Under the pieces are notes generated by a model. It was given only the letters and a program-made list of their open reading frames with translations, searched no databases and was not told where the DNA came from. 32,000 bases of DNA, taken from assembly GCA_964551375.1 (NCBI GenBank), contig CAZKBG010000001.1:240001-272000 (forward strand), written 5' to 3'. Source of the stretch: an uncultured archaeon. Its GTDB lineage: Archaea; Iainarchaeota; Iainarchaeia; Iainarchaeales; JAAZKV01. The position numbers and the translations under genes were made by a program. Of this stretch, positions 1 to 28,803 are shown in pieces. Numbering within the stretch: position 1 is the first letter of the stretch; the number at the start of each line of letters is the position of its first letter.

Positions 1-1
1 A

Positions 2-1123: not shown

Positions 1124-1278
1124 GTATTAAAGAGGTAACCGCTAAAGAAAAATTAAAGAAACCAAAACAAAAATCTCTGCAAAAATCACTAACGTGAAAT
1201 TTTTTATCCGCATTTTTGGGGCACAGAGCCAAATACCCCAATCAGAAGCTTTTTATATTACAAAGGCCTAATTTGAGC

Positions 1279-1533: not shown

Positions 1534-1640
1534 CAACCATCAATAAAACTGGTTTTCTTAATCGAACAATAAAGTTAGTGATTAAGTTCTCTGTATGAAA
1601 ACACCAAAAAGCATTTAATTAACAAAATGAGTAAATTAGT

Positions 1641-2321: not shown

Positions 2322-2392
2322 TAATTTAGTAAATCACTTAATCGTTTTAGATATTCTTAAATATAATAAAATCTTAGTAATAGTTGACTTTT

Positions 2393-3214
2393 ATGGCAAT
2401 ATTAAGCTCATTTGACAAAATTGCGCTTGTCGGAATAATAATATGTTTAGCATTAATATTTGCTTCAGCAGCAGGACTTGATTTAGCAAAACCATACCAC
2501 CAATTTACTCAAATGGTATTCGGCACAGAAGCCGTAACGGATTCTAATGGAGTACTTTTGGCAAAATACGGCGGAACAGGAGTAGCAAAATGCGGAACAG
2601 GAGATGTGCTTGTTTGGAACAATACACAAAATAAATGGATATGCACTAACATGTTCGGACCGGGGAGCCCGCCAACAGCAACACTAACCGCAACACCAAC
2701 AACAGTAAATTATGGAGGAGCATCAAGCATAATTTGGAGCTCAACAAACGCAGACACTTGCGTTGTTAGAAAAAACGGAGCAGCATTCTCAACATTACTT
2801 TCAAGCACAGGAACAACTTCAGGCGCGCTTACTGCAAACCCAACAAACTTTGATATAAACTGCACAAACATAAACGGCTCAAACGCGCTAATCACTGTAC
2901 CAATATCAGTAACTGACAATTACCCAGCGCCCCCAGCAGGCGTTTTAGTTTACGACAGCGGATGGCAAGCATGGAACCCAGTATCAATATCACTAAACCA
3001 CACAAGCGTTCCAGTTGCAAACCAAAACGTAGTAGCATACGTTGGATGGGCTCAAAGCCCAGTGCCAGCACACGCAGCAACAAACTTCACAAGCTACGGC
3101 TCAACAGCAGCATACAGAATAACCGCAAAAGCAACAACTTACCTAACGATCACAAGAAGCGGACAAGCAGGCGAGCCATACTACTACTGGGTAAGGATAT
3201 ATTCGACGGCTTGA
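2393..3214 (+). CDS. secreted/anchored protein with a Thr/Ser-rich Ig-like module
   Basis: ATG at 2393 (the ORF-track start is TTG at 2384). N-terminal hydrophobic segment IALVGIIICLALIFASAAG. Module ATLTATPTTVNYGGASSIIWSSTNADTC...DINCTNINGSNALITVPISV has the beta-sandwich repeat pattern common in surface proteins. Several N-x-S/T sequons. Confidence 0.7.
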   Translation: MAILSSFDKIALVGIIICLALIFASAAGLDLAKPYHQFTQMVFGTEAVTDSNGVLLAKYGGTGVAKCGTGDVLVWNNTQNKWICTNMFGPGSPPTATLTATPTTVNYGGASSIIWSSTNADTCVVRKNGAAFSTLLSSTGTTSGALTANPTNFDINCTNINGSNALITVPISVTDNYPAPPAGVLVYDSGWQAWNPVSISLNHTSVPVANQNVVAYVGWAQSPVPAHAATNFTSYGSTAAYRITAKATTYLTITRSGQAGEPYYYWVRIYSTA

Positions 3215-3254
3215 AAAAAGAAATAATTAAATACTAAAAACATCCCATCACATT

Positions 3255-3566
3255 ATGAACGAGAATGAAATTAGATCGCTTTACTTAGCCAGTGCTGTCC
3301 CACTTTTACTTGTCGGACTTTTCATAATATTTATAGTATTATTTGGAAATTATGACCGCACAATTACCACAACAGGTTTTATTAACGGCTTAATTATTTT
3401 TTTAATCGCAATAGTCCCATCGATATACTTTTGTGCGTTTAAATTTTATGAATATAACAAGAAGGTTCATTCGCTTAAATTGACAAAAGTAGGAATTTTG
3501 ATTAATGCAGCATATTATGTTTTTATTTTTATATTTATTTTTCTGATGATTATTAGCATAATTTAG
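3255..3566 (+). CDS. small polytopic membrane protein, unknown function
   Basis: 103-aa ORF with ATG start and three long hydrophobic segments. Very AT-rich, no recognisable motif. Confidence 0.55.
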   Translation: MNENEIRSLYLASAVPLLLVGLFIIFIVLFGNYDRTITTTGFINGLIIFLIAIVPSIYFCAFKFYEYNKKVHSLKLTKVGILINAAYYVFIFIFIFLMIISII

Positions 3567-3623
3567 AAATAGCGAATATGAACACTTTTGTTATACCCAA
3601 ACCGTGTTAGCGATTGGCAATGA

Positions 3624-3905
3624 AATACCTCAACCAACCAACTTCATACAACTTTTAGGCTGGAAAAAAGAGACACGCTCACAATATTCCCAAGCAGCGA
3701 AGAAAAACAAGTTCTAATTGTAAAAAGAGTAATAAGCGTTGAAAATCAACCTCAACGAGAACTAAGCCCAAAACAAAAAGCCCACGCTGAAAAACTAAAA
3801 CAAGCATTCTCAACTGCAGGACTTGAAGACTTTGGCGTCCACAACTTAATTTACGACGCAGAAAGAAAAAAATGCATTATAATAGATTTGAGACTCACAA
3901 GCTAA
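3624..3905 (+). pseudogene. startless 5'-truncated paralog (remnant) of the 1641..2321 kinase-like gene
   Basis: Open frame of 93 codons from the TGA at 3621-3623 to TAA at 3903-3905, with no in-frame ATG/GTG/TTG before its last few codons. It translates to ...EEKQVLIVKRVISVENQPQRELSPKQKAHAEKLKQAFSTAGLEDFGVHNLIYDAERKKCIIIDLRLTS. The last 27 aa match the parent, and the VLIVKR strand sits at the same 40-residue spacing from the EDFGVHN loop as FLVTEH does in the parent. Confidence 0.65.
3816..3895 (+). repeat. right copy of the 80-nt direct repeat
   Basis: 79/80 identity to 2226..2305, read directly from the sequence. Confidence 0.95.
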
Positions 3906-3915
3906 AAAGCAGATG

Positions 3916-4998
3916 TCATCTTTTCAAATACACCGTCTGGGAAGGGAAAGCAAAGCTGATTTTGGCTTTCTCAAAATCTTTTTTTATCCTCAACCCCACA
4001 ATGTCTCGGGCTTGAAGCATTTCCTTATGAACGCCGTGCTTGGTGTAAAAAATAATCTCAATATCAAGCGAACTTGCGCCAAATCCCTTAAACACTACTG
4101 TATAATCATCATCGCACAAATCGCACTCCTTAATAGCGGTCTTGATTATCTTCTTCGCCAGTTCAAGCTTTTTATTTGAAGTATCAAAAGTCAAACCAAT
4201 AGTCCACACGACCTTCTTCTTAGGCGCGCCGGTAATATTTGTCAAAATTTCGCTTGCCAAAATGCTATTCGGCACCACAACAAGCTGCTTGTCAAGATCG
4301 CGAACCTTAGTATGCCTAAGATTAATCTCCTCAACCTTCCCAGTATACTGCCCGTTTGAAAACTTAATCGTATCCCCAACGACAAAAGGGCGCGAAAACA
4401 AAATAGATAAACCTCCAAAAGCATCAGCAATAGTTTTCTGAGCAGCAAAAGCAAGCGCAATACCCCCAATACCAAGCCCCGCAAGCAAAGACCAGACATC
4501 AATCCCCATATTGTCAAGAACAATGATAATTCCAATACAAATCAACCCAACTTTCACAGACTTCTTTAACCACGGCAGAATCTGGTCATCAAGCTTACTG
4601 TCACTCCTATCAGTAATCGGCTTTAAGATGCGCTCAAACAAAGAATCAACAAGCTTTACTACAAACCAAATAATGTTCAGCATGAACAAAACTTTAATCA
4701 CAGTATAAAAAGTTTCAGAAACAGACTCGGGAAAAACAAGAAACTGATAACCTGCAACAAAACCGCCAAGCACAATTATAAAAGCAAAAGGCTCCTCTGC
4801 CAAGTCAACTAAAATATCATCAATATCGGTTTTTGTCTTTTTTGTAAACTTGTGCAAAACATTCTTTGAAAAATAAAGAACAATCTGTGAAAGAACAATT
4901 GCCCCAACAACTACTCCCAACGCATAGCCCCAGCTCTCAATAGAATTGCCGAAATAAACAAACTGCAAAAAGTCCACAGCCATAAAAATCACCGACAA
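3916..4998 (-). CDS. MscS-family small-conductance mechanosensitive channel
   Basis: N-terminal TM helices followed by GLGIGGIALAFAAQKTIADAFGGLSILFSRPFVVGDTIKF...GKVEEINLRHTKVRDLDKQLVVVPNS, the hallmark TM3 plus beta-domain pattern of MscS. Confidence 0.85.
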   Translation of the reverse strand: MSVIFMAVDFLQFVYFGNSIESWGYALGVVVGAIVLSQIVLYFSKNVLHKFTKKTKTDIDDILVDLAEEPFAFIIVLGGFVAGYQFLVFPESVSETFYTVIKVLFMLNIIWFVVKLVDSLFERILKPITDRSDSKLDDQILPWLKKSVKVGLICIGIIIVLDNMGIDVWSLLAGLGIGGIALAFAAQKTIADAFGGLSILFSRPFVVGDTIKFSNGQYTGKVEEINLRHTKVRDLDKQLVVVPNSILASEILTNITGAPKKKVVWTIGLTFDTSNKKLELAKKIIKTAIKECDLCDDDYTVVFKGFGASSLDIEIIFYTKHGVHKEMLQARDIVGLRIKKDFEKAKISFAFPSQTVYLKR

Positions 4999-5018
4999 TT
5001 AATGAAAATTTTAGTAGA

Positions 5019-5091
5019 TACCCCAACCGGGATTCGGACCCGGGTTACAAGCTTGAAAGGCTCGTGTGCTTGACCGCTGCACTATTGGGGC
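5019..5091 (-). tRNA. tRNA-Glu (anticodon UUC), 73 nt, no encoded CCA
   Basis: The minus-strand sequence GCCCCAA-TA-GTGC-AGCGGTCAA-GCAC-A-CGAGC-CTTTCAA-GCTTG-TAAC-CCGGG-TCCGAAT-CCCGG-TTGGGGT-A folds as a cloverleaf. It has a 7-bp acceptor stem (G1-U72), a 4-bp D stem, a 5-bp anticodon stem with loop CTTTCAA (U33, TTC, A37) and a 5-bp T stem. Confidence 0.85.
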
Positions 5092-5152
5092 AATCAACTC
5101 AACCAACTATCCAATAGTGCGTTCGTTTTCGCCAGCCTTTTTCTAAAAGGCT

Positions 5153-5169
5153 GCTGCACTATTGGGGCA
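5153..5169 (-). repeat. 17-nt duplicate of the tRNA-Glu 5' end in the tRNA leader
   Basis: gctgcactattggggca occurs at 5076..5092 (tRNA 5' end plus 1 nt) and again at 5153..5169. Between them, 5111..5120 (ccaatagtgc) is the exact reverse complement of 10 nt of both copies, and 5134..5152 is an 8-bp/3-nt-loop hairpin. Confidence 0.9.
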
Positions 5170-5270
5170 TGAAATTATTTTGTTTTCATGCGAGGCTTTG
5201 CCTCAGTTAAGTTTTTTGTTTTAGTAAAAAGTTTGGGAGGAAAATCGTTTATAAAGCTTTCATTTGGGGG

Positions 5271-5651
5271 TTAATTTTTGCCCGCGAGCATTCTTGCAAC
5301 TCTTTTTGCGTCTCTTCGCTTTGCAAGGTTTCTTTTGAGCTGGCTTTCAAGTTCAAGCTCTCTTCTCATTCCGCTATTTACAATTCCCAAGTCTCCAGTC
5401 ACTGCTCCTGTGAACTGCCTGTCCCTTGCTCTACGCATGCCTGTATTTATTTCTCCAAGCGCAGGGCTTGTTCTTCTTCGCTCAAATTTCAAAAATTCAG
5501 CAGCTACTTTTCTTCTCGCAGCAATCATCGGTCTTCTTCTTGGAGCAACCATTAAACCATCACTAAAGTATTTCTTCTTTAGAAGTATAAATGCTTTGCC
5601 CCTAAAGGAAGCGCTTAGGGCTTTTTGGGGACTTTTGTTTTTGAAGCCCAA
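5271..5651 (-). CDS. Arg/Lys-rich orphan protein (start uncertain)
   Basis: AGA/AAA/GCA codon usage matches the other genes here, whereas the overlapping plus-strand ORF 5278..5703 is Leu/Ser/Phe-rich like an antisense artefact. The ORF-track start is TTG at 5651. The first ATG, at 5552, is preceded by AGTGATGG (SD-like) and would give a 93-aa protein. Internal short repeat N-[TS]-G-M-R-R occurs twice. Confidence 0.5.
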   Translation of the reverse strand: MGFKNKSPQKALSASFRGKAFILLKKKYFSDGLMVAPRRRPMIAARRKVAAEFLKFERRRTSPALGEINTGMRRARDRQFTGAVTGDLGIVNSGMRRELELESQLKRNLAKRRDAKRVARMLAGKN

Positions 5652-5702
5652 AACAACCCTTATAAAGCTTTGGCTGTTGATTTCTTTGATAGGTGAGTTT
5701 TA

Positions 5703-5867
5703 GTGGCTGACTTCAAAGAATCATTGGCAAGAAGATTCAATAATGTTTACATCTGCCAAAGGTGCAATGCAACAAACAGATCTTCTTCAGGACTTCCTGC
5801 CCAGTGCAGAAAGTGCGGTTCAAAGAGATTAAGATTAAAGAAGAAAAAGAAGAAGGCTGCTGCTTAA
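5703..5867 (+). CDS. rpl40e: ribosomal protein L40e (zinc-ribbon)
   Basis: This 54-aa ORF is below the ORF-track cutoff. GTG start at 5703 follows AGGTGAG (SD) at 5-nt spacing. Product: VADFKESLARRFNNVYICQRCNATNRSSSGLPAQCRKCGSKRLRLKKKKKKAAA. The CxxC...CxxC arrangement and basic tail match archaeal L40e. Confidence 0.75.
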   Translation: MADFKESLARRFNNVYICQRCNATNRSSSGLPAQCRKCGSKRLRLKKKKKKAAA

Positions 5868-5895
5868 AAGCAGGCTTCTTTTTAGAACTTTTTTT
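5850..5895 (+). terminator. hairpin plus oligo-T tracts downstream of rpl40e
   Basis: aagaaggctgc (5850-5860) pairs with gcaggcttctt (5870-5880) with one mismatch. T5 (5879-5883) and T7 (5889-5895) follow. Oligo-T is the usual archaeal termination signal. Confidence 0.45.
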
Positions 5896-6042
5896 GCTTG
5901 GCTCAAATTTTTATCAAAAATCCCAGGCAGGTTTTTAAACGTTTTACTCTTGACTTCTGTCCGCAAAATATGCTAAGAGGAATTTAATTAAATAATTTGA
6001 TAACACGCTATAAGTTCAGATAAATAAGCAAGAGGATTATTC

Positions 6043-7857
6043 ATGGTTGCAATGGGACTGTTTGTTCAAATGGCGGAAATTATTGTTGCCGCCACTATCA
6101 TCAGCCTTGTCTTAAGAAAACTAAAACAGCCAAATTTATTTGCTTATATTATTGCCGGAATTGTAATAGGCCCTTTTGTTTTAGGAGCATTTGATTTGAG
6201 TTTCTTGAATCTGCCTTTTGCTTTGGGAATAAAAGAAATAACTCCGGAGATTCACTTATTATCAGAGCTTGGCGCAGCGTTTTTGTTATTCTCAATCGGA
6301 ATTGAAACATCAGTAAAAAGACTCCTTCAAATGGGAAAACCATTACTTGCAGGAACCTTCATGCAGGTTGTTGGAGTAATTTTAGTAACAGTAATTTTAA
6401 CAAATTTTACAGGAATGCTTCCTTTAGAAACTTCACTATTCCTTGGAACAATAATCGCATTCTCCTCAACTATGATAGTAATCAAACTCTTAGCTGATAA
6501 GAAGGAAACTAACACATTGAATGGAAGAGTCACTATTTCAATTTTATTAATTCAGGACTTTTTAGTAATAATATTCGTTCCACTTTTACAAAATGTTTCA
6601 AAAATCGGGGACCCAACTTTCTTTGCCCCGATTGTAGCCCAAACAGTAGCCCTTTTGGCAATTGCCCTTCTTGCAAACAAATTCCTCTTCCCAAAATTGT
6701 TCTCAATTGCGGCAAAGGATAATGAATTATTTTTCCTCTCAAGCATCTCAACAGCATTTTTATTTATTGGAGTGAGTTATATTTTAGGAATACCAATTTC
6801 AATCGGAGCCTTCATTGGAGGACTTGCATTAAGCAGTCTGCCTTACAACACAGCAGTATTTTCAAAAGTAAGAGCTCTTCGAGACTTCTTCTTAACAATA
6901 TTCTTTGTTTCCTTGGGAGCAACTTTAACATTTGCGTTTGGAAGCCTGCCAATATTATTAATGATAACAATAATTCTCTTAATTTTTGTATTCAAACCCC
7001 TAGTATTTTATGCAGTGAGCCTGCTTTCAGGGTACGGCTCAAGACTTGCGCTTGAAGTCGGAATGACGCTTGCACAGGTGTCAGAATTCGGATTTGTAAT
7101 TGTAGCACTGGGCGCCGCAGCAACGCTTGCAAACGGAGAATCAATAATCTCGCAAAGCCTTGCTTCATTCATAATCGCAATTTCTGCAATCTCAATGATG
7201 GTAACCCCGCATTTGATGAATTATTCCCCAAAAATGGCAAATATTGTTTCGCTTAAAATGAATAAATGGTTTAAAGTTGACCAAAATAAACGCTTGAATA
7301 AAAGAATTGATGATTTAAGAAAAATGCCTTCAAAGGAAAAATTGCAAAATCATATTATTGTAATAGGGGGCGGGCTTTTAGGGAGAAGACTTGCAAGAAA
7401 GCTGAAAATTAACTCAAAAGTAATTATTGTTGACGCTGATCCGGAAGTGGTTCTTCAGGGACAGCATGACAAACTTGATTTTGTTTACGGGACTTCAGAA
7501 GATGTGGAGCTTTTGGAAAAACTTGATTTTGAAGACGCAAAATTAGTCCTTATTGCGATGACAGCCCATAAAGAAGCGTGCAATTTTGTCATGGCATTAA
7601 AGAGAATGTCCCCCAAAACAAAAATATTCGCTATTTCAAATCACTTTTATAACGCGGTGGAGCTTTACGCTAAAGGAGTGGAGTACGTTTCAATCCCGCC
7701 AATTTCTGGAACGCAGGAAATTTATAATTTAATTGATAACTTCGGGAAAACAAGAAAAGTTTTCATAAGCCAAAAAGCAAAAGAAGCGCATATTAATTAC
7801 ATCAAATCACAGGCTGAAGAAGAATTAAAGTATAGAAAGAGATTAATGGTAATTTAG
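6043..7857 (+). CDS. CPA2-family monovalent cation:proton antiporter (Kef/NapA-like) with C-terminal RCK/TrkA-N domain
   Basis: About 12 TM segments with an N-terminus IIAGIVIGPFVLG typical of the Na+/H+ exchanger family. The C-terminal Rossmann motif IIVIGGGLLGRRLARKL...VIIVDADPE indicates an RCK domain. Confidence 0.85.
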   Translation: MVAMGLFVQMAEIIVAATIISLVLRKLKQPNLFAYIIAGIVIGPFVLGAFDLSFLNLPFALGIKEITPEIHLLSELGAAFLLFSIGIETSVKRLLQMGKPLLAGTFMQVVGVILVTVILTNFTGMLPLETSLFLGTIIAFSSTMIVIKLLADKKETNTLNGRVTISILLIQDFLVIIFVPLLQNVSKIGDPTFFAPIVAQTVALLAIALLANKFLFPKLFSIAAKDNELFFLSSISTAFLFIGVSYILGIPISIGAFIGGLALSSLPYNTAVFSKVRALRDFFLTIFFVSLGATLTFAFGSLPILLMITIILLIFVFKPLVFYAVSLLSGYGSRLALEVGMTLAQVSEFGFVIVALGAAATLANGESIISQSLASFIIAISAISMMVTPHLMNYSPKMANIVSLKMNKWFKVDQNKRLNKRIDDLRKMPSKEKLQNHIIVIGGGLLGRRLARKLKINSKVIIVDADPEVVLQGQHDKLDFVYGTSEDVELLEKLDFEDAKLVLIAMTAHKEACNFVMALKRMSPKTKIFAISNHFYNAVELYAKGVEYVSIPPISGTQEIYNLIDNFGKTRKVFISQKAKEAHINYIKSQAEEELKYRKRLMVI

Positions 7858-7869
7858 TTAAAACCGTTT

Positions 7870-8070
7870 TTACCTTGGCTTTTTTCTTCTGCTTCTTGCC
7901 CATCTCATCTTTAATTCATCCGCAAGAGCAACTCTCTGCGATTGAGTAAGCTGAGACGAAATCTTAACGCCTTTACTCCAAACGCTTGGAAGTCTTCTGC
8001 CGCTTTCAAGCTTTAAAATCAGTTTTCTATCAATCTTTCTCTTGGCTTTGGTTGACATTCGCCTTGGCAT
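7870..8070 (-). CDS. small basic protein, possibly L39e-like
   Basis: ATG at 8070 is preceded by AAGGAGTG (SD); the ORF-track GTG at 8079 lies inside that SD. KRKIDRKLILKLESGRRLPSVW resembles the L39e core (R-I-K-R-x-L-A-K-K-x-K-x-N-R-P-I-P-x-W) and RWARSRRK resembles its RHWRRTKL tail, but about 15 extra residues lie between them. Confidence 0.4.
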   Translation of the reverse strand: MPRRMSTKAKRKIDRKLILKLESGRRLPSVWSKGVKISSQLTQSQRVALADELKMRWARSRRKKPR

Positions 8071-8185
8071 TAAAAACACTCCTTAACGCTAAAATAAACT
8101 CTATTGATTAATATTAACCTTTTGTTTTCAAGAAGTTTAACCCAAATAGCGAAAGCATTTAATAGTAGAGAAACCTACTTTTTGC

Positions 8186-9121
8186 ATGGCAAAAAAAAAA
8201 CAAGCAAAAGTGTCAAGAACAAGAGTTGCTAGAAGAGAAGTAAAGCAGGCAAGAAATGACTTTATGCTTGAAGTTAATCCAAATAATCTTCCAATTGAGA
8301 AGAGACTTTGGGCATTTTTAGAACTTGCAAGAATTGGAAACTGCATAATGGCAGGAATTGCAATATTAATCGGATTTTTTGTAGCAAGCGGATATGATAT
8401 TGGGCTTGCAACAATCGCAGCACTTTCAGGAATGCTTGTATGCGCAGCAGGACAGGCAATTAATGATTACTTTGACGCAAAAATTGACGCTAAAACTTCA
8501 AAGCATAGGCCGATTCCTTCCGGAAGAGTAACTCTTCATGAAGCAATGCTATTTTCAATTGGATTATTTATTTTAGGAATCGCGCTTGCATCCCAAATCA
8601 ATGTTGTCGCATTCTTTATTGCGTTAATAATGTCAATACTCCTTGCAGCATACCCTCTTTACATGAATAATGTGAAATTTATTGGAAATGCTCTTGTGGC
8701 GCTTGGAACAGCAATTACTTTTGTTTACGGAGCAGCAGCAGTATCAGGAAATATCCCGCCGCTTGTAATCGCGCTGGCTTCAACAGCATTCTTTGCCAAT
8801 ATTGCAAGAGAAATAACAAAGGATATTGAAGATGTGAATAAAGACAAAGGCGCAAAGAACACTCTTCCAATTATTATTGGAGAGTTTAAAGCAAAAGGAT
8901 TTGTTTTCATTTACTATTACCTTGCAGTTGCAGTAAGTATTTGGGTGTTCTTTGAGTACAGCCTGTCATTTGGGTATTTATTATTCGCAGCGCTTGGCTC
9001 AATTACATTCATTAATGCATCATGGCTGTTGTTCAAAAAACACGCTAAGAAAAGCCAGAGGATGTCAAAACTGGGGATGATTGCAAGCCTGTTAGCATTC
9101 ATCCTTGCGGGATTAAGGTAA
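8186..9121 (+). CDS. UbiA-family prenyltransferase, likely digeranylgeranylglyceryl phosphate (DGGGP) synthase
   Basis: Polytopic membrane protein with NDYFDAKIDAKTSKHRPIPSGR (NxxxDxxxD plus RPxxSG) and a second Asp-rich region (KDIEDVNKD). In archaea this family makes the membrane lipid core. A TATA-like gcatttaatag lies about 25 nt upstream of the ATG, suggesting a leaderless start. The N-terminus carries a basic 25-aa extension. Confidence 0.8.
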   Translation: MAKKKQAKVSRTRVARREVKQARNDFMLEVNPNNLPIEKRLWAFLELARIGNCIMAGIAILIGFFVASGYDIGLATIAALSGMLVCAAGQAINDYFDAKIDAKTSKHRPIPSGRVTLHEAMLFSIGLFILGIALASQINVVAFFIALIMSILLAAYPLYMNNVKFIGNALVALGTAITFVYGAAAVSGNIPPLVIALASTAFFANIAREITKDIEDVNKDKGAKNTLPIIIGEFKAKGFVFIYYYLAVAVSIWVFFEYSLSFGYLLFAALGSITFINASWLLFKKHAKKSQRMSKLGMIASLLAFILAGLR

Positions 9122-9212
9122 CATCCCTTAAAGCAGACATGTTTTTTGACTAATTTTTTGACAAAGGAAAAGATTTAACTGCACAACAAGCATATTTTAC
9201 ATCAGAATTAAT

Positions 9213-9842
9213 ATGATTAAGGCAATTTTCTTTGATTTTGCTGGGGTTCTTTCAAAAGAATACAGCATAGTAAGCGGATACTTTGTGCCTTACTATAAAC
9301 AACTTACTGAAGAAGTTCTAAGGGAAAGATATAGAAAAGGAAGAGATGGGGAATTAACATTTGAAGAAATTATAGAAGGCATTCCAGAAAGAAAAGTGTT
9401 TAATTATTTAGAAAAAGCGAAGCTTAACAAAGGCGCAACAGAAGCTCTTCAGGAATTATCAAGGCATTACAAGCTTTACATTGCCTCAAACCACCTCCCT
9501 GGTTTTTTTGAAACAGAAATAGAACACTTAGGAATCAAAAATTATTTTACAGATTTTTATATCAGCTATAGGCTCAAAATGCACAAGCCGTTAAGAGAAT
9601 TTTTTGAAAAAATGATTTCTGAATCAAAAATCAATCCAAAAGAAGCTATTTTTGTGGATGATGCATTGACAAACCTTGAAACCGCAAAAGCAATTGGAAT
9701 GAAAACTATTTGGTTCAACAATAAAAACAACGACAAAAGGAATGCAATTGAATACAAGCCGGATTATGAAGTAACAAATTTTAGAAAACTGCTTGAAGTA
9801 ATTGAAAGCATTGAGTTAAAATCTGAAAATCAAACGCTTTAA
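9213..9842 (+). CDS. HAD-superfamily hydrolase
   Basis: Motif I FFDFAGVL has the nucleophile Asp, but Ala sits at the +2 position where phosphatases have Asp, as in dehalogenase-like members. Also SNH (motif II-like), K in HKP, and FVDDALTNLETAKAIGMKTIWF (motif IV). Confidence 0.7.
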   Translation: MIKAIFFDFAGVLSKEYSIVSGYFVPYYKQLTEEVLRERYRKGRDGELTFEEIIEGIPERKVFNYLEKAKLNKGATEALQELSRHYKLYIASNHLPGFFETEIEHLGIKNYFTDFYISYRLKMHKPLREFFEKMISESKINPKEAIFVDDALTNLETAKAIGMKTIWFNNKNNDKRNAIEYKPDYEVTNFRKLLEVIESIELKSENQTL

Positions 9843-9886
9843 ATTAAAATAAAAAAGTTTTAAACCCCATAAATTATAAAGGTTAA

Positions 9887-10918
9887 TCAAAACCACTGAC
9901 TTAGGCTTCTTTGCTTTTCAATCTCTTCTCTTTTCTTAATAAAAGAATTAATTGTTGATTCAACCCTGTCTTTTGAAAAATCATGCTTCTCTACCAAAAA
10001 CTCTATCACTTTTTCTTTATTCGGCTCCCTTGCTTCAAGATCCTTAAGCGCAACATCCACGCTCACCGGGTTAAGAAACACCTGCGCGATTTCTTTGTAA
10101 TCAAAATCAGGCTCGTATTTTGTTTTTGCAATAATTTCCTCAAAGCTATTTGCTTCCTTTACTAATTTTAACGCGGTTTTTGGCCCAATTCTTGGAAACT
10201 TTTCATTAAAATCAGTTCCGACAAGCATTCCGAGCCAGATTAATTTTTCTCTTGACACTCCAAGCTGTTTTTCAACGCTTTCAAGCTCAATATGCTGGGG
10301 CTTTACTTCAACGTAAAAATTCTTTCCAGCAACTTTTCTTTTCCCTGTGATTCCAACATTTCTAAACAAATGATTTGCCCCAAAAAGCAGACAATCAAAG
10401 TCCTGGCTAACTACTCCAAACAACTGCCCCTTTGAAACCATTACACTTCCCTGAGCTTCCCCTTCCTGCGGAGCTTCAATTACAGGAATTCCCATGTGAA
10501 TTAAAAGTTCTTTTGCTTCGCTAATCATCTGAGGAGTCATTTTTAATGCGCGTGAGCCGAATTTTTGCGCGTCTTCTAAATTTCCTTCCTGCAAAGCATC
10601 TTTTGATTTTTTTTCAGCATCAGTTCTAACTTCTCTTCTCTTTCTAAGTGTTTCAGCTTTTAATTTTGAAGGAGCGCCGTCAAAAACATAAACAGGTTTT
10701 ACTCCAAGCTCAATTAAATTAAGAGTTCGGTAAAATAATCCTGTTAAATGAGAAGTAACATTCCCATGTGAATCAGCTAACGGCAAACCGTCAGGTCCGC
10801 GAATACTTGCAAGAAATTGATAAAGCATGTTGTAAGAATCAATTCCAACTTTTTTTCCCGACAAATAATCAAGCGCAATCTCTTCTTTCTCCACAAGCTC
10901 TGAAATATTTACTCCCAT
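9887..10918 (-). CDS. fen1: flap endonuclease FEN1
   Basis: MGVNISELV... N-terminus, XPG-N/XPG-I pattern (VYVFDG, SQDFDCLLFG), helix-3-turn-helix GVSREKLIWLGMLVGTDFN and C-terminal PIP box QRSLSQWF. The ORF-track GTG at 11020 adds 34 hydrophobic residues that FEN1 proteins lack, so I take the ATG at 10918. Confidence 0.9.
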   Translation of the reverse strand: MGVNISELVEKEEIALDYLSGKKVGIDSYNMLYQFLASIRGPDGLPLADSHGNVTSHLTGLFYRTLNLIELGVKPVYVFDGAPSKLKAETLRKRREVRTDAEKKSKDALQEGNLEDAQKFGSRALKMTPQMISEAKELLIHMGIPVIEAPQEGEAQGSVMVSKGQLFGVVSQDFDCLLFGANHLFRNVGITGKRKVAGKNFYVEVKPQHIELESVEKQLGVSREKLIWLGMLVGTDFNEKFPRIGPKTALKLVKEANSFEEIIAKTKYEPDFDYKEIAQVFLNPVSVDVALKDLEAREPNKEKVIEFLVEKHDFSKDRVESTINSFIKKREEIEKQRSLSQWF

Positions 10919-21278: not shown

Positions 21279-21485
21279 TCACTGCTTTTTCAACGCCAGT
21301 CTGATATCTTCATCAGTAACTGTTTTTCTTCCAGCGTGCTTTGAAAATATTGCTGCCTGCTGTGCAACCTTCATTCCTTCTTCTTCCAAAAAATTTGAAA
21401 GCTCTTTAGCCGCGCTCTCGCTGACTCTAATTCCAGTAGATTTTCTAATAATTCTGTCAATTGCCGCTAATGGTAACTCGCTCAC
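21279..21485 (-). CDS. archaeal histone (HMf-type histone fold)
   Basis: 68 aa: LPLAAIDRIIRK...RVSESAAKEL...AQQAAIFSKHAGRKTVTDEDIRLALK is the canonical archaeal histone-fold pattern. GTG start is preceded by AGGTGGTG-TAA. Confidence 0.9.
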   Translation of the reverse strand: MSELPLAAIDRIIRKSTGIRVSESAAKELSNFLEEEGMKVAQQAAIFSKHAGRKTVTDEDIRLALKKQ

Positions 21486-21631: not shown

Positions 21632-24600
21632 ATGCAAAAAATTAATCAAGCAATAATTATCCTGATTTGTGTTGCACTTATCCCAACTTTCATTAATGCC
21701 GCGACATATTACCCATCAGTAACTCTTTCATGCAAAGCTGCGGTCGGACAAATTGGAAATTCAAATCCAGGGTGCACAGTTGACGGCCCGCCAAACTTTT
21801 CTTCAATAAGCGCGGGCGGAGGATGCCCATACCAAGGAGCAACTGCATTCAATGGAGGAATTATGGCAAGATTTGGAGGAAGCAACTGCACAGGAAGCGC
21901 AACTTTCACTTGCAATAATGCAGCATGCGCACTTGATGACGCATATAACTACCCTTCAACATCGCTGTCCTGCACTACAGGCGCATGCGGAGTCGGAGGA
22001 TGCCCTCAATGTTATCTTGATAACGTAGCAGGATACTGGCTTGATGGAACAGTTTGTTACGGAGACTGGGGAAGCGGAGGATATTTATATTACTCTTGCA
22101 GCGGACAATATGCGACAGCAAGAGCAAATAGAAAATGCATCAGCGCAGGATGCGCAACTGCAAAACCAGGGGCTTGCGGAACAGCAAACGCAAAAACATA
22201 CGGATTTACTGCAACAGGATTTGGCGCCGACACTATTTGTTCAATAGGAACATCAACCCCATCAACAGTTTCATTCCCAGCAGCAGGATCAACTGCATCA
22301 TGGACTTGCCGAACAGCAACTGGAAGCGCAAATTGCAGCGCAACACATAGCGCAGCGGCTAATTGCAGCGCAGGCGGCGTGACTGTTTTGCACGGCGCTT
22401 CAAGAACATTTTATCAAACATCAACAGTTGCGTGTGGAGCTTCATGCGCATCAGTAGCGCAAACAAGGACCTGCAATAACGGCACTCTTTCAGGAACATA
22501 TACTAATGCAACATGCACAGAGCCCCCAGCAATTAATGGAAATTGGACTTCGTGGAGCGCATGTAATTCCGGAATAAAAACACGAACCTGCACTAACCCT
22601 TCGCCGTCATGCGGAGGAGCAGGATGCAGCGGACTTTCAAGCGACTCATGCACAAATGCTTCATGCGGAACTAACGCAAGAGCACACACTGCAGTTGAAA
22701 GCACATTCACAGGAACATTCTGCGCAAGCGGAAATGCCCCAGCAACAACCCCCTCCTTTCCAGCATCAGGGGCAAGCACAACATGGACTTGCACTGGAAT
22801 TAATGGAGGAACTAATTCCACATGCACCGCAACAAGAGCCGCTGGAGGAGTTCCAACAGCGACATGCGCTGATTTATCAATATCAACAGGATTTAGATTA
22901 AGCACTCAAGTAGGTTGTTTTTATGTTGATGCAAATATTATTAACAACTCAGGAAAAAACTTTGCAGGAAGTTCAAATGCAAGGTTAATTGTAAGAAATC
23001 CAATAACAGCAACAAATGCATATGTATTCAATCAATCTCCAGAAGCAGGGGACAACTATGGATGGTGGCTATATGACCAATTTAGCTGTATTGGAGCAAC
23101 TGGAAATCCATGGGTTTCCACAACATATCCTTATGCACATTGCATAGCATATGATGTCGCAAATTGGCCTGCATTAATTGCAAGCAACCAACTAATTGGA
23201 AGCGATAATTCGCCGTATATGAAAATGAAGACAACATTTACAGGATGGCTTACAGAAAGCGGCAAAAGATATCCCTATATTGATTTTACTTTGCCCGCAC
23301 TTACAAACGGACAAAAGGCAAGTGTTCCAACAATGCAGTGGCTTTGTCATAGATTAAGAAACCCGCTTGCAGCAGATATGACTTATGAACTAAACTGCAC
23401 ACCAACAGCGGTAAATAATCCCCCATTACTTTTAGACTTTAACCTTGCGACAACTGTTAATTCAGCCGTTAAGTCAGAACTTCTTACAAATTATGTTACT
23501 GACGAATCGCCTTCAACTTTAACTTACCAAATCACTTCCGAAAACACTGCGCAAGTGGACTGCGCAATCAGCGACAAAAATATTCTTTACACACCTGCGG
23601 CAAATTACGCTGGAAACGCAACATGTGTAATTAGAGTTACTGATGATGGAGGACTCACAAGCACTGCGACTGCAAGAATAACTGTTTCAGGAGAAATTGC
23701 AAACTGCATTGGGGCTAATTGCATTCAAGGAAAAACTGGAGTATGCGGAAGAACATCAGGAGGAGCAATACCTTTAGTGAATATAACGCTCCCCCCATAT
23801 GATGCAAACACAATCGCATACTGGATAATGAGAGCAAATAATCGCGCAGGCCCATATATACTCTTAGGAGCATACGGCTACCAGCCAATTACAGTAAATG
23901 ACTCTTATGACTTAAATGCGGGACTTGTTTATTATTACAACTTTGCAAAGCACAGCAGATTCGGCGACAACAATGTTGTAAGAACAGAAGCTTACTGCGC
24001 GCAGGCATACTGTTCAGTGATGCAATGCGGAGGAAATATTGACGCAAACTGGAGCGCAATTGCTGGATCAAACAAATACTTTGTTTATGTTTCTACTGAC
24101 AACAATATTTTCACAAAAGTAACTGGAATGAGTTGCGATGTAAGTTTCCCTTCAGGAATGGGTGTAGTAACAACAGAAACCCAGTTTAATTCAGTATGCT
24201 CAACAAATTTCACAATCCCTAGACTTAATCCAAACACTTTGTACTACTTCAAAGTTGAGGGAAGGAGCAGATACTACGGCGGAGAAAGTTCACAAGGATT
24301 TACCGGAACAGCAACTGCAGTGTCCTCTCAGCTATGCACAACAACGCCAGCCCCTCCCTGCACTGCGCCAATAAATGGAATTTGCGGAAATGCATCCACT
24401 GCTTACGCAGTAGGAACTACAACTTGGCCAGTGGGAGCAGTATTCTGCGCTGATGGAAATGCAATTCCTTCCTCGCCAACATTCCCAATTGCAGGAACCC
24501 CAACAATATGGGACTGCAACGGACTAAATGGAGGAAATAGTGTAACATGCAATGCAACAGTAGGAGCATGCTCGCCTGACACAAACACTGATGCTTATCA

Positions 24601-25279
24601 CTGCGCAAGAGCTAATGCTGAATGTGGAAATATCACTGTTCAAAACGGAAATTGCGGAAATAAAACAGTGAATTGCGGACCTGATACTAATGCATGCAAT
24701 ACAATGTACGGCACATGCAATACAGCAGGAGTAAAAACATGCAGCGCAAATAAATACTCGCTTACTTGCGCAACAGTTGACCCAAGAATTTCATACTGCG
24801 CAACAAGAGTTTGCGGAAGCGATTTGTGCGGCGGAACTTGCGGAAGCGGATGCGGAGCAGGACTTACATGCAACGCAAGCGGACAATGCATACCCGCTCC
24901 AGAAAACTCAATCACTTCACTTTCAGCAATTTATGACGGAAACTTAAACCTTGAATCACAGTGCGCATTTGAACAGCCAAATGCAAGAATGATAATTAAT
25001 TACCTTGACACAAATGAAGAAATCGCAAACTACAGCCCTTATTTGTGCGGAGCAACATCACAAACACAAATAAAAAATATCCCAAACCTTCGCTCAAACA
25101 CAAATCTTGTGATAACACTCACAATTCCTGCGCCATGCGATGTGTGCATAAAAACAATTTATCTTCCAATTAAAGCAGTGAATCAAAAAACCGAATCAAT
25201 TCCTGACAATAATTTAATTGCAGTAATTTTAGTACTCGCAGCCGCAGTAATTCTAATCTCAGCAAAGCGAAGAAATTAA
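21632..25279 (+). CDS. giant cysteine-rich mosaic surface protein (signal peptide, multiple disulfide-rich and beta-sandwich modules, C-terminal TM anchor)
   Basis: 1215 aa. N-terminal signal MQKINQAIIILICVALIPTFINA. C-terminal LIAVILVLAAAVILISAKRRN (TM plus basic tail). Many Cys and many N-x-S/T sequons. Modules are described in the findings. The long antisense ORFs inside it are artefacts of the compositional bias. Confidence 0.9.
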   Translation: MQKINQAIIILICVALIPTFINAATYYPSVTLSCKAAVGQIGNSNPGCTVDGPPNFSSISAGGGCPYQGATAFNGGIMARFGGSNCTGSATFTCNNAACALDDAYNYPSTSLSCTTGACGVGGCPQCYLDNVAGYWLDGTVCYGDWGSGGYLYYSCSGQYATARANRKCISAGCATAKPGACGTANAKTYGFTATGFGADTICSIGTSTPSTVSFPAAGSTASWTCRTATGSANCSATHSAAANCSAGGVTVLHGASRTFYQTSTVACGASCASVAQTRTCNNGTLSGTYTNATCTEPPAINGNWTSWSACNSGIKTRTCTNPSPSCGGAGCSGLSSDSCTNASCGTNARAHTAVESTFTGTFCASGNAPATTPSFPASGASTTWTCTGINGGTNSTCTATRAAGGVPTATCADLSISTGFRLSTQVGCFYVDANIINNSGKNFAGSSNARLIVRNPITATNAYVFNQSPEAGDNYGWWLYDQFSCIGATGNPWVSTTYPYAHCIAYDVANWPALIASNQLIGSDNSPYMKMKTTFTGWLTESGKRYPYIDFTLPALTNGQKASVPTMQWLCHRLRNPLAADMTYELNCTPTAVNNPPLLLDFNLATTVNSAVKSELLTNYVTDESPSTLTYQITSENTAQVDCAISDKNILYTPAANYAGNATCVIRVTDDGGLTSTATARITVSGEIANCIGANCIQGKTGVCGRTSGGAIPLVNITLPPYDANTIAYWIMRANNRAGPYILLGAYGYQPITVNDSYDLNAGLVYYYNFAKHSRFGDNNVVRTEAYCAQAYCSVMQCGGNIDANWSAIAGSNKYFVYVSTDNNIFTKVTGMSCDVSFPSGMGVVTTETQFNSVCSTNFTIPRLNPNTLYYFKVEGRSRYYGGESSQGFTGTATAVSSQLCTTTPAPPCTAPINGICGNASTAYAVGTTTWPVGAVFCADGNAIPSSPTFPIAGTPTIWDCNGLNGGNSVTCNATVGACSPDTNTDAYHCARANAECGNITVQNGNCGNKTVNCGPDTNACNTMYGTCNTAGVKTCSANKYSLTCATVDPRISYCATRVCGSDLCGGTCGSGCGAGLTCNASGQCIPAPENSITSLSAIYDGNLNLESQCAFEQPNARMIINYLDTNEEIANYSPYLCGATSQTQIKNIPNLRSNTNLVITLTIPAPCDVCIKTIYLPIKAVNQKTESIPDNNLIAVILVLAAAVILISAKRRN

Positions 25280-25359: not shown

Positions 25360-27795
25360 ATGGCATTTGTAACGCACAAACTCATAAAGCCTGACGCGGT
25401 AGAAGCAAGACTATATCAGGAAGTTTTAGTGTCAAGAATTGCTGATAAGGGAAACACGCTTGTTGTAGCCCCCACTGCGCTAGGAAAAACAATTGTCGCA
25501 GTAATGCTCACAGCATATTTACTTGAACACCAGCCCGAAAAGAAAATCCTCTTCCTTGCCCCCACTAAACCTCTTGTAGTACAGCATGAAAAAAGCTACA
25601 AAAAGTTCATGGCAATTGATGAAAATGACATTGTCGCAATCACAGGAACTACAAAGACAAATGAAAGGGAAAAACTTTACAAAACAAAAAAAATAATCAA
25701 CGCAACCCCGCAGACAATTGAAAATGACCTGCTCACAGGCAAAATCAGATTGGATGATTTCGGGCTTGTCATATTTGATGAAGCGCACAGAGCAATCGGA
25801 GACTATGCTTATGTGTTTATTAATCTCCAGCTCCAAAAACAAAATCCAAAAGCATTGGTTCTTGCATTAACCGCAAGCCCCGGAAGCGAAGAAGAGCACA
25901 TACAGGATGTTTGCAGGAATTTAAGCATTAAAAATATTGAAATCAAAGACGCAAGCGATCATGATGTTAAGCCGTACGTGAATGAAATAGAAATTGACTG
26001 GGTAAAAGTGGATCTTCCCCAGGATTTTATGAAAATAAAACAGCACCTTGAAGAGTTTCAGGAGAAACAGCTCAAAACACTAAAATCGCTTGGAGTGGCA
26101 ATGACGGCAAACAAGAGATACTATAACAAAATTAGGCTTCTTGAAATGCAGGCAGTAATTAGAAAGAGAATAATTTCACACGGAAAAAGCCAGCCGAGCT
26201 TATTTTTCGCAGCAAGCAGATGCGCAGCAATGCTAAAAGTATCCCACGCGGAAGAATTAATTGAAACACAAGGAATTGGAGCGTTGAATAACTATTTTTC
26301 AAAACTTGAAGAAGACGCAATGAAAGGAAAAAGCAAAGCCGCAAGAGCAATACTTGCTGATGAAGAAATCAAACTCGCAATAATTCTTACGCGAAAACTT
26401 TTCCACAATAAAGTACAGCACCCAAAATACGCTGAGCTGAAAAAGATTATTCTAAAACAATTAAGCGAACAGCCTGAAAGCAAAATAATTGTATTTAACC
26501 ATTACAGAGATTCGATTAAAGAAGTGGTTGAGTTTTTGCACAACAATACTGACGAAATGCTTGCCAACGGAAATAATCCAATAAAAGCGACAAAATTCAT
26601 AGGGCAGGCAACTAAAGGCACGGAAAAAGGAATGAGCCAAAAATTACAGCAGGAAGTGCTTGATGAACTTCGAAGCGGAGAGCATAACGTTATTGTTGCA
26701 AGCTCTGTTGCAGAAGAAGGGCTTGACATACCGGCAGTGGAGCTTGTAGTATTTTTTGAGCCGGTGCCAAGCGAAATAAGAACAATTCAAAGAAGAGGAA
26801 GAACTGGAAGATTTTCAAAAGGAAAAACAATAATATTAATGGCGAAGAATACAAGAGACGAGGCATTTTACTGGACTGCAAGAAACAAAGAACGCAAAAT
26901 GAAAGAAACATTAAATACTATGAAAAAATCAGATACATTCGCGCTCCCAGAGCAGACGCTTCTCACAACTTACGCTGAAGACAAAGGCGAGCAGATAATT
27001 ATTTTTGTTGATTCACGCGAGCAGGCATCTACCGTGAATAAAGAGCTTTTTGAAAAACCGCAGGTAAAAGTTATTATGAAAGCGCTTGATGTGGGAGATT
27101 ATATTTTAAGCAAAGATGTGTGCGTTGAGAGAAAAACAACTGAAGATTTCATCAGCTCAATGATTGACGGAAGATTATTCAACCAAATAAAAAGCATGAG
27201 AGAGAATTACGCAAAACCATTAGTTATAATTGAAGGAAATATGAACGAAATGTACACGCTCCGCAATATTCACAAAAACGCAATCATTGGCGCGCTCACA
27301 AGCATTGCCCTTGACTACCAAGTCGCAATTATTAATACAAAAAATGACGCAGAAACCGCGGAATACATTTACGCAATTGCAAAAAGAGAACAGCTTGGAC
27401 AGGACAAAGAAGTAAGGCTTCGAGTGGGAAGAAAAGGATTCACGCTTGAAGAACAGCAGAGATTCATTATGGAAGGGCTCCCAATGGTGGGACCGACTCT
27501 TGCAAAATCACTGCTTGAAAAGTTTGGAACAATACAAAATATCGCAAACGCAAACGAAAAGGATTTGCAAAAAGTGGATAATTTAGGATTAAAGAAAGCA
27601 AAACTAATCCACAAAGTTCTTCAAACCAAATTTGACCCTGAAAAGAAATACGAGCTTGACGAAGCAAATGACGAACTTAATGAAGAACACTCAAAAAGCG
27701 AAACCGCAGGCAGTGAGGAAGAAAGTTTTGATATTTTAACAACAAGCGACGGAGAAAAATTTGAAAATGGAGAAGGAGATGAAACTAATGAGTGA
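25360..27795 (+). CDS. hef: Hef: SF2 helicase fused to an ERCC4/XPF-type nuclease and an HhH2 domain
   Basis: Helicase motifs APTALGKT (I), FDEAHR (II), TASPG (III) and QRRGRTGR (VI). Nuclease VDSREQ...GDYILS...VERKTTEDFISSMIDGRLFNQ (ERK-x3-D). HhH2 LPMVGPTLAKSLLEKFGTIQNIANANEKDLQKVDNLGLKKAKLI. Acidic C-terminal tail. Confidence 0.9.
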   Translation: MAFVTHKLIKPDAVEARLYQEVLVSRIADKGNTLVVAPTALGKTIVAVMLTAYLLEHQPEKKILFLAPTKPLVVQHEKSYKKFMAIDENDIVAITGTTKTNEREKLYKTKKIINATPQTIENDLLTGKIRLDDFGLVIFDEAHRAIGDYAYVFINLQLQKQNPKALVLALTASPGSEEEHIQDVCRNLSIKNIEIKDASDHDVKPYVNEIEIDWVKVDLPQDFMKIKQHLEEFQEKQLKTLKSLGVAMTANKRYYNKIRLLEMQAVIRKRIISHGKSQPSLFFAASRCAAMLKVSHAEELIETQGIGALNNYFSKLEEDAMKGKSKAARAILADEEIKLAIILTRKLFHNKVQHPKYAELKKIILKQLSEQPESKIIVFNHYRDSIKEVVEFLHNNTDEMLANGNNPIKATKFIGQATKGTEKGMSQKLQQEVLDELRSGEHNVIVASSVAEEGLDIPAVELVVFFEPVPSEIRTIQRRGRTGRFSKGKTIILMAKNTRDEAFYWTARNKERKMKETLNTMKKSDTFALPEQTLLTTYAEDKGEQIIIFVDSREQASTVNKELFEKPQVKVIMKALDVGDYILSKDVCVERKTTEDFISSMIDGRLFNQIKSMRENYAKPLVIIEGNMNEMYTLRNIHKNAIIGALTSIALDYQVAIINTKNDAETAEYIYAIAKREQLGQDKEVRLRVGRKGFTLEEQQRFIMEGLPMVGPTLAKSLLEKFGTIQNIANANEKDLQKVDNLGLKKAKLIHKVLQTKFDPEKKYELDEANDELNEEHSKSETAGSEEESFDILTTSDGEKFENGEGDETNE

Positions 27796-28395: not shown

Positions 28396-28803
28396 ATGGT
28401 TCAGTGGCACATGAGAGACGATAAGAAGCCAAGCGGCGGAAAAAGAAATACTGTTAACGCGGTAGACAAAAAACTTGCTTGGAAAGGCGGAGCAAGCGCA
28501 ATGACTAAAACTGATTCAACTGTTAAAGCAAACAAGGTTGAAATGAAAAAAGGGCTTGGGTCAACAATAAAAGTAAGAGCTCTTGAAGTTAAATTTGCAA
28601 ATGTTACTGATAGAAAAGGAAAAGTAATCAAGGCAGAAATTGTTTCAGTAAAGGACAACAACGCAAACAGACTTTATGGAAGAGCAAATATCTCCACTAA
28701 AGGCGCGATAATCCGGGTAAAAGTTGATGGAAGCGAAAAACTTGCTGAAGTAACAAACAGACCGGGGCAAGAAGGCGTAGTTAACGCAAAGTTAATGGAA
28801 TAA
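28396..28803 (+). CDS. rps8e: ribosomal protein S8e
   Basis: WHMRDDKKPSGGKR N-terminus, NANRLYGRANISTKGAIIRV and VTNRPGQEGVVNAKL match the S8e pattern. ATG is preceded by TGGTGAG. Confidence 0.85.
   Translation: MVQWHMRDDKKPSGGKRNTVNAVDKKLAWKGGASAMTKTDSTVKANKVEMKKGLGSTIKVRALEVKFANVTDRKGKVIKAEIVSVKDNNANRLYGRANISTKGAIIRVKVDGSEKLAEVTNRPGQEGVVNAKLME

Follow-up and report, generated by a model that had tools for sequence, protein, structure and literature searches.

The 32-kb window analysed here (positions 240,001 to 272,000 of contig CAZKBG010000001.1, from an uncultured archaeon) contains, on its plus strand, an uninterrupted open reading frame (ORF) for a 1215-aa predicted surface protein at 21632..25279. 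Its ATG start is unambiguous, because just 7 in-frame codons separate it from the upstream stop. The ORF is the largest in the window, as the initial annotation had stated, and is followed in size by that of the Hef helicase/nuclease (811 aa). An identical protein (P0001), carried by a 946,135-bp contig, is on record in NCBI and Logan, and a second assembly, SRR12133404, has the same protein flanked by the same neighbours. We describe the protein as a candidate C-terminally anchored, disulfide-stabilised, passive modular adhesin or binding stalk of a small-genome, probably DPANN archaeon, a reading that we judge slightly likelier to be right than wrong. The features that it is built on, and the other features of the window, are collected in Table 1.

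Topology and module order of the surface protein

The protein's N-terminus reads MQK-INQAIIILICVALIPTFINA, with AT directly after the predicted cleavage site. By inspection and hydropathy, it is organised like a Sec-type signal peptide for signal peptidase I, with an n-, an h- and a c-region, namely the charged n-region MQK, the h-region INQAIIILICVALIPTF and small residues around the processing site (I-N-A at positions -3 to -1, then A-T). A lipoprotein or pilin-type signal was ruled out by inspection of the N-terminus. Similar N-termini were found in P0053 and P0051, two proteins that have other parts in common with the query (see below). The C-terminus reads ...ESIPDNN-LIAVILVLAAAVILISA-KRRN, where PDNN occupies aa 1191-1194 and directly precedes a transmembrane (TM) helix with a basic tail. 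Both the cleavable-looking signal peptide and the C-terminal anchor of the initial annotation were borne out in this way. Hydropathy revealed no further hydrophobic segment besides these two, and the predicted topology is type I, with ~1170 residues outside the cell.

The protein contains 75 cysteines, of which 74, an even number, are in the mature ectodomain. The counts in certain individual modules are odd: there are 5 cysteines in the module that we call B, and 9 jointly in the adjoining thrombospondin type-1-like repeat (TSR-like repeat) and the second copy of module A (A2), both of which claim C345 (aa 244-408, window 22361-22855). Thus, although the ectodomain total is even, at least one inter-module disulfide or free thiol would be implied. 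The window also encodes a DsbA-like thiol:disulfide oxidoreductase, with CPFC as its motif and, at the N-terminus, a hydrophobic segment that ends in a lipobox-like LLGC. This enzyme is likely to be extracytoplasmic disulfide-forming machinery, and the organism is therefore plausibly able to oxidise extracytoplasmic cysteines such as those of the 74-Cys ectodomain.

No catalytic, phage or defence family was detected in the protein by Pfam, NCBIfam enzyme, PHROG and PADLOC searches, and a phage or defence origin was ruled out, there being no PHROG or PADLOC match. Surface display of the protein, as first proposed, is well supported by sequence: the signal peptide, the one C-terminal TM helix with its basic tail, the even count of ectodomain cysteines, the restriction to modules of the extracellular type and the DsbA-like enzyme encoded in the window all point in this direction. 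N-x-S/T sequons had been described as frequent, and 23 of them are indeed present; this number is no excess over composition, since composition-preserving shuffles gave 20.7 +/- 3.9 and 32% of the shuffles reached 23. N-glycosylation of the protein is considered probable.

Table 1. Features of the surface protein in order from the N-terminus, followed by other features of the 32-kb window
Feature	Residues (aa)	Window position	Strand	Evidence or remark
Sec-type signal peptide (MQK, hydrophobic core, I-N-A before and A after the predicted cleavage site)	1-23	21632..21700	+	Hydropathy >2 for aa 3-25; -3/-1 rule by inspection
Orphan Cys module N1, 6 Cys	24-103	21701..21940	+	Farthest from the membrane
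Orphan Cys module N2, 8 Cys, 11 aromatic residues	104-175	21941..22156	+	
Module A, copy 1 (CG..C..FP..G..W.C..C.A)	176-243	22157..22360	+	Alignment of module A copies
Module B (C..G..V.HG.S..Y....V.CG..C....RTCNNG.LSG.Y...C)	244-297	22361..22522	+	
Degenerate TSR-like repeat	298-346	22523..22669	+	PDB, UNC5D TSR, E 1e-4
Module A, copy 2 (A2)	~342-408	22655..22855	+	First Cys, C345, is the last Cys of the TSR-like repeat
W/Y-rich 'NNSG' beta-sandwich domain	~401-596	22832..23419	+	phmmer relatives P0050, P0051, P0053, P0111
Big_9 / cadherin-like Ig domain	595-686	23414..23689	+	Pfam Big_9, E 2.3e-8
Weak fn3-like segment 1	687-800	23690..24031	+	No Pfam match
fn3-like domain 2	801-900	24032..24331	+	Borderline Pfam fn3
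Module A, copy 3	901-978	24332..24565	+	Alignment of module A copies
Dense Cys block, 16 Cys, ending CGSDLCGGTCGSGCGAGLTCNASGQC	979-1090	24566..24901	+	No Pfam match
Membrane-proximal 4-Cys beta-type domain	1091-1188	24902..25195	+	
C-terminal anchor: S-I-P-D-N-N junction, TM helix, KRRN tail, stop codon	TM helix 1195-1211	25196..25279	+	Hydropathy up to 2.47
Histone-fold protein		21279-21485	-	Neighbour of the surface-protein gene
Hef helicase/nuclease		25360-27795		Neighbour of the surface-protein gene
DsbA-like thiol:disulfide oxidoreductase, 230 aa		431-1123	-	Pfam Thioredoxin_4, E 3.6e-32; DSBA, E 2.6e-15
tRNA-Glu(UUC)		5017-5092	-	ARAGORN; Rfam 63.6 bits; sole RNA gene detected in the window
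Na+/H+ exchanger		6043-7857		
UbiA prenyltransferase		8186-9121		
HAD hydrolase		9213-9842		
Ribosomal protein S8e		28396-28803		
Direct repeat, 80 nt, copy 1		2226-2305		3' end of ORF 1641-2321
Direct repeat, 80 nt, copy 2		3816-3895		Intergenic
Second putative surface protein, 276 aa		2384-3214	+	N-terminal hydrophobic segment; no Pfam match

Relatives of the individual modules

Module A is a unit of ~65 aa with four cysteines and the pattern CG...C..G...FP..G...W.C.G.NGG...C.A.R, and it occurs in three copies, as the initial annotation had it. A hidden Markov model of the module found 99 instances in 19 retrieved proteins. Elsewhere the module belongs mainly to Patescibacteria, including MNSC_02290 of Minisyncoccus archaeophilus (P0006), a Pacebacteria protein and proteins with a prepilin N-methylation motif, and it is also present in one other small-genome archaeal metagenome-assembled genome (MAG). 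Since it recurs in surface and prepilin-motif proteins of Patescibacteria, module A appears to be displayed on exposed structures of episymbionts. MNSC_02290 and the prepilin-motif proteins P0019, P0022 and P0033 have the same ~65-aa, 4-Cys module at 31-56% identity; the copies are mostly arranged in tandem, and the proteins that carry them are exported ones from ultra-small episymbionts. They differ from the query in being bacterial, in having an N-terminal pilin helix as anchor or no anchor, and in the rest of their architecture, which is unrelated. Copies 2 and 3 in the query are 74% similar at the DNA level over merely 57 nt, so that their duplication is old.

An AlphaFold2 (AF2) model of A2, based on a 91-sequence alignment, showed a small beta-rich domain with a predicted local distance difference test (pLDDT) score >90. 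A Foldseek search with this model found nothing significant in PDB and BFVD (best E 2.4 and 1.1; the weak neighbours are immunoglobulin (Ig)-like), and a search with the module A profile against PDB sequences came back empty. A composite MAFFT alignment for modelling the full ectodomain was discarded, because it piled up fragments of different modules, with 53 of its 81 fragments misplaced and all B fragments placed on A2.

Module B, which had been annotated without a name at aa 245-295, recurs in bacteria, with 177 instances of the repeat in 23 retrieved bacterial proteins at 41-69% identity. No Pfam or PDB relative of module B was found, the PDB profile search being empty or noise. Thus, judged by sequence, modules A and B are both widespread, with neither a match in the Pfam copy searched nor a PDB relative. 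The bacterial-looking protein P0021 has the same B-TSP1-A order as the query, and its TSP_1 domain passes the Pfam gathering threshold (GA).

Thrombospondin type-1 repeats (TSRs) are extracellular binding modules, and TRAP and CSP of apicomplexans are TSR adhesins. The repeat between modules B and A2 of the query matches TSRs of UNC5D and UNC5B in PDB (E 1e-4) and shares 45-52% identity with canonical repeats in a metagenomic, eukaryote-like protein. TSR hallmarks are present, including W305-T-S-W308 (W-x-x-W) and K-T-R-T-C320, the Arg/Lys layer before the third Cys. As compared to TSR adhesins such as UNC5 receptors and thrombospondin, the query has the same core (W-x-x-W...R-x-C..NP.P..GG..C.G; 52% identity to canonical TSRs) and departs from the canonical six-Cys pattern in that it lacks the first Cys and the 4-7-residue CSxxCG hairpin, has an additional Cys at 327 and shares C345 with A2. 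The junction of the two modules thus appears compressed, with C345 serving as the last Cys of the one and the first Cys of the other. The Pfam TSP_1 model (PF00090) was covered completely and reached 14.7 bits vs a GA of 21.6 (E 0.037). Modelling of aa 297-338 by AF2 gave a pLDDT of ~45, with merely two sequences covering that part. The TSP1-like module of the initial annotation is therefore upheld by the UNC5D match and the 52% identity, and not by Pfam; we treat the repeat as a genuine but degenerate TSR, below Pfam grade. A metagenome scan returned one protein only, Ga0206696_1629652 (62-3634). This eukaryote-like protein of 1190 aa combines a trypsin-like domain with three canonical TSP1 repeats and also contains ShK-like Cys repeats and poly-Arg tracts; it was retrieved solely via TSRs that share INGNWTSW with the query.

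The Trp/Tyr-rich (W/Y) region pointed out initially proved to be a conserved domain common to four other proteins, P0050, P0051, P0053 and P0111, which were retrieved at 30-36% identity when 1.84 billion representatives were searched exhaustively with phmmer. Their alignment with the query has 24 invariant columns, including the NNSG motif and three cysteines. For P0050, P0051 and P0053, the alignments extend from the W/Y domain through the following Big_9 domain. The latter, annotated at first as a cadherin/Big-like beta-sandwich, passes the Pfam threshold for Big_9 (PF17963; 35.2 bits vs GA 23.6; model positions 1-89/89, aa 595-684), while the overlapping Cadherin_5 match (PF17892) stays below its own (23.8 bits vs GA 26.5). 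The phmmer search with the protein also retrieved hundreds of Big_9 repeat proteins, and a word-based search with aa 405-900 found just two weak Big_9 matches. The AF2 model of the W/Y domain has a confident beta-sandwich core and a ~75-aa aromatic insert that was left unmodelled (mean pLDDT 59), and Foldseek found no PDB match for it with E below 0.1. AlphaFold modelling followed by Foldseek had been proposed as a check with the initial annotation; it yielded confident folds for module A and the W/Y core and no significant structural neighbour for either.

P0111 (GCA_965027525.1, CBCCEY010000008.1, 8001-10430) has module A and the W/Y 'NNSG' domain together. The genes around it are bacterial (Pth of the bacterial type, RecJ, ComEC and signal peptidase I), and the W/Y domain is therefore common to DPANN archaea and a bacterium of the candidate phyla radiation (CPR) type.

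The remaining modules have fainter relatives. The Pfam fn3 model (PF00041) matched aa 801-900 with 25.6 bits when this segment was taken in isolation and with 19.6 bits in the full protein (GA 25; model positions 30-82/84), so that the fn3-like segment of the initial annotation stands in the first setting and falls short in the second. It has an LN..YY F-strand motif in common with fn3-like segment 1, and the bacterial fn3-repeat proteins P0117, P0133 and P0156 align to aa ~757-839. The dense Cys block, found where it had been annotated, is faintly similar to a stretch of P0050 that follows Big_9 and is likewise rich in Cys (pairwise E 0.002). The membrane-proximal domain aligns over 113 aa with the C-terminus of P0053 (31% identity, E 0.001) and matches P0051 by BLAST (E 3e-4). 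N1 and N2 have no relatives in Pfam, PDB or the databases searched. They had been taken for two copies of one module; their common part is the Y-x-YPS-x-x-LSC leader alone (BLAST E 0.003 over 25 aa), and the rest, with 6 vs 8 cysteines, is not copied.

Besides the identical entry, no full-length homologue of the protein was found, whether with a surface or a non-surface function, and the other matches cover <=22% of the query, via modules A, B and the TSR. Scans of a genome collection and of metagenomes with P0001 found no orthologue, and a genome-collection scan with P0053 found only its own Iainarchaeum contig. Different relatives have different blocks in common with the protein, in keeping with the mosaic architecture first proposed. 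P0053 (960 aa; JAPLVQ010000114.1), from a MAG of the DPANN archaeon Candidatus Iainarchaeum, is like the query in its signal peptide, its W/Y 'NNSG' and Big_9 domains in this order (33-36% identity over ~300 aa, also in P0050 and P0051), its membrane-proximal 4-Cys domain and its P-D-N-N, TM helix and basic tail. In contrast to the query, it has PKD-like domains in place of modules A and B, the TSR and fn3. Because the N-terminal and middle modules differ, P0053, P0050 and P0051 are relatives by parts and not orthologues. The picture that emerges from these comparisons is of a protein that would have been assembled by shuffling from a pool of extracellular domains partly common to CPR and DPANN. 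P0051 is encoded on a Logan contig of SRR32573209 (60.7 kb; 1-10709), directly downstream of a pair of giant proteins (2483 and 2330 aa) that are predicted to be at the surface; its locus is a surface-protein gene cluster, in contrast to that of the query, which has housekeeping genes around it.

The C-terminal layout of P-[DE]-[NT]-N, TM helix and basic residues is also present in P0053 (VPDNN-TM-KTKITKK) and P0051 (APETN-TM-SKK). With P0131, which ends in the looser variant ETDSN, the motif is known from three proteins and a fourth that fits it less strictly. In its tripartite organisation of motif, TM helix and terminal basic cluster, this C-terminus is like the CTERM signals of archaeosortases and exosortases (PGF-CTERM, PEF-CTERM, GPS-CTERM, Loki-CTERM and others); it is unlike them in that P-[DE]-[NT]-N fits no curated model and is found in three to four proteins. 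Matches to the curated CTERM models stayed below threshold, at 12.7 bits vs 28 for GPS-CTERM in the query and 14.3 bits vs 19.9 for Loki-CTERM in P0053. No further ORF in the window ends in such a motif followed by a TM helix and basic residues. We take a plain TM anchor as the default reading of the C-terminus and a sorting signal as a lead only.

Attachment and the competing explanations

Host-contact candidates in DPANN and CPR organisms are surface proteins with signal peptides, Ig folds and glycosylation, for which that literature reports no functional proof (10.1101/2023.10.27.564410; PMC6142677; PMC10936435). Those of Nanobdella aerobiophila MJ1 and the hypothetical external proteins of Nanoarchaeota, compared here by description, resemble the query: they have signal peptides, numerous N-x-S/T sites and Ig/PKD-like beta-sandwich folds in chains, their sequences are not homologous to those of characterised proteins, and a role in symbiont-host contact has been hypothesised for them (10.1101/2023.10.27.564410; PMC6142677). 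The query is far richer in Cys, and modules such as A, B and the TSR-like repeat are not described there.

The part of the adhesin proposal that can be read from the sequence is the Sec signal peptide, a single C-terminal TM helix with a basic cytoplasmic tail, and ~13 tandem extracellular modules with no catalytic domain. The DsbA-like oxidoreductase could oxidise the 74 ectodomain cysteines. If the protein is an adhesin, the region near the membrane may serve as a spacer made of the membrane-proximal 4-Cys domain, both fn3-like segments, Big_9 and the W/Y 'NNSG' domain, and would project the Cys-knotted modules (the three copies of A, B, the TSR-like repeat and the two N-terminal orphans) some tens of nanometres outward, by a back-of-envelope estimate of a few nanometres for each of ~13 modules. 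The ligand of the projected modules would then be a protein or glycan, carried by another cell (a host being the most plausible one) or by some other surface. Module shuffling may have built the protein, including the B-TSP1-A block that is also found in a bacterium and the domains that span the CPR/DPANN divide. Attachment to a host or other cells is plausible by analogy, because module A is found on pilin-like and surface proteins of Patescibacteria, including the archaeal parasite Minisyncoccus, and because adhesins are hypothesised in the DPANN/CPR literature. For the same reasons, namely the display of module A by CPR episymbionts and the preference in the literature for such proteins in host contact, the surface of a partner or host would be the most attractive ligand.

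Several observations weigh against this proposal. The modules farthest from the membrane (aa 24-175) are orphans without a predicted fold, and for modules A and B there is no characterised relative; their designation as binding modules is therefore argued from context alone. The gene is set among housekeeping genes, outside any surface-protein cluster. Glycosylation is not specifically indicated, because the density of sequons equals the expectation from composition. A host-dependent lifestyle of the organism is assumed, and we infer an episymbiotic one solely from the archaeal neighbour genes, the 946-kb contig and the DPANN relatives of parts of the protein. Finally, the S-layer proteins of DPANN archaea are equally lineage-specific, multi-Ig and glycosylated, and the same features would fit them (10.1101/2023.10.27.564410).

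Accordingly, the most serious rival is a surface-layer (S-layer) or other structural envelope glycoprotein, held by its TM helix and forming a lattice or canopy without binding a specific partner. The signal peptide, the large size, the composition rich in Thr, Ala, Asn and Ser, the many sequons, the Ig-like chain and the C-terminal TM anchor would all be expected of such a protein. However, it would be unusual for an archaeal S-layer protein to have 74 cysteines and so many small knotted modules, the relatives carry the modules in shuffled sets and not as a unit, and module A is present on bacterial pilin-like proteins, which makes a structural role unlikely in our judgement. We also hold it decidedly unlikely that the protein, instead of attaching the cell to a host, serves at the surface as a receptor or scavenger of polymers or particles from the environment (polysaccharide, mineral or biofilm matrix), or in self-aggregation. 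Carbohydrate-binding proteins and those of biofilms often contain beta-sandwich, fn3 and Big modules, and the W/Y-rich insert, with 24 aromatic residues in 186 aa, resembles sugar-binding surfaces. Against this, no carbohydrate-binding module (CBM) or lectin family was detected in the protein by Pfam, and the window holds no linked glycoside hydrolase or transporter; CBM2 and chitin-binding domains are among the Foldseek neighbours, but these matches are weak and non-significant (E > 0.1) and come from a low-confidence model.

The protein might also be a fast-diversifying decoy, shield or variable antigen directed against viruses or host defences, varied for example as the target of a diversity-generating retroelement (DGR) or by exchange of cassettes, which we regard as very improbable. 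Surface proteins of DPANN and CPR organisms are often hypermutated and fast-evolving (PMC6142677, in part), and the query has no close orthologue. The latter point is partly a matter of poor sampling of the lineage, since even ribosomal protein S8e of this organism has no relative at >=90% identity. Moreover, the intragenic repeats are old (72-74% identity), PADLOC and PHROG gave no match, and the window has no near-identical repeat pair of the template/variable type. A DGR target was ruled out: the sole long repeat pair, of 80 nt (Table 1), is outside the gene, and the ORFs scanned contain no reverse transcriptase domain.

A bolder extension of the adhesin reading, which we hold to be quite improbable as a whole, is that module A and the W/Y 'NNSG' domain belong to an attachment toolkit exchanged horizontally between CPR and DPANN and, at the same time, that the P-[DE]-x-N C-terminus is a new DPANN sorting signal cleaved by an archaeosortase-like enzyme. 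If both were true, the toolkit would be displayed on pilins in Patescibacteria and on TM-anchored stalks in DPANN archaea, and the signal would mean covalent anchoring after cleavage by such an enzyme.

Host recognition and attachment by DPANN archaea are largely unexplained, and candidate adhesins are an obvious entry point. The present protein is a clean candidate and a good experimental target, since its ORF is complete, its predicted topology is unambiguous and the limits of its modules are defined. Modules A and B, the cross-domain W/Y 'NNSG' domain and the P-[DE]-x-N anchor motif are leads that can be reused elsewhere. Mosaic, fast-evolving surface proteins are already expected in ultra-small archaea, and current thinking is not overturned; thus, the value of the protein is for cataloguing and for the selection of targets.

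The surrounding genes and the organism

The neighbours of the surface-protein gene are those of an archaeal housekeeping region. In addition to the histone-fold protein and Hef, the window encodes peroxiredoxin, rubrerythrin, FtsZ, MetRS, FEN1, ribosomal protein S8e and TFB. The GC content at third codon positions (GC3) of the surface-protein gene is 0.30 vs 0.28-0.37 in its neighbours, and the gene therefore looks native. Its surplus in overall GC is at codon position 2 and comes from a composition rich in Ala, Gly, Thr, Cys and Ser. Recent horizontal transfer of the whole gene was ruled out by the neighbour-like GC3, the higher GC being explained by the amino-acid composition.

In a set of ~15 billion proteins clustered at 90% identity, S8e, the Na+/H+ exchanger, the UbiA prenyltransferase and the HAD hydrolase of the window are each a singleton cluster, and S8e has no relative there at >=90% identity. 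To judge by these sequences, the organism is one without a closely related sequenced relative. The missing orthologues of the surface protein would thus partly reflect thin sampling of the lineage.

The two copies of the 80-nt direct repeat are identical at 79/80 positions and have sharp edges. Copy 1 forms the 3' end of an ORF with a kinase-like tail, and the 1.5 kb between the copies encodes a putative secreted protein (276 aa) and a multi-TM protein (103 aa). In appearance, the pair is what an insertion or duplication would leave behind; an integrase was not seen. The 276-aa protein bears an Ig-like module (TLTATP..V..GG.S.I.WSS.NA..C), and similar modules are present in the CPR/DPANN matches P0031, P0036 and P0040.

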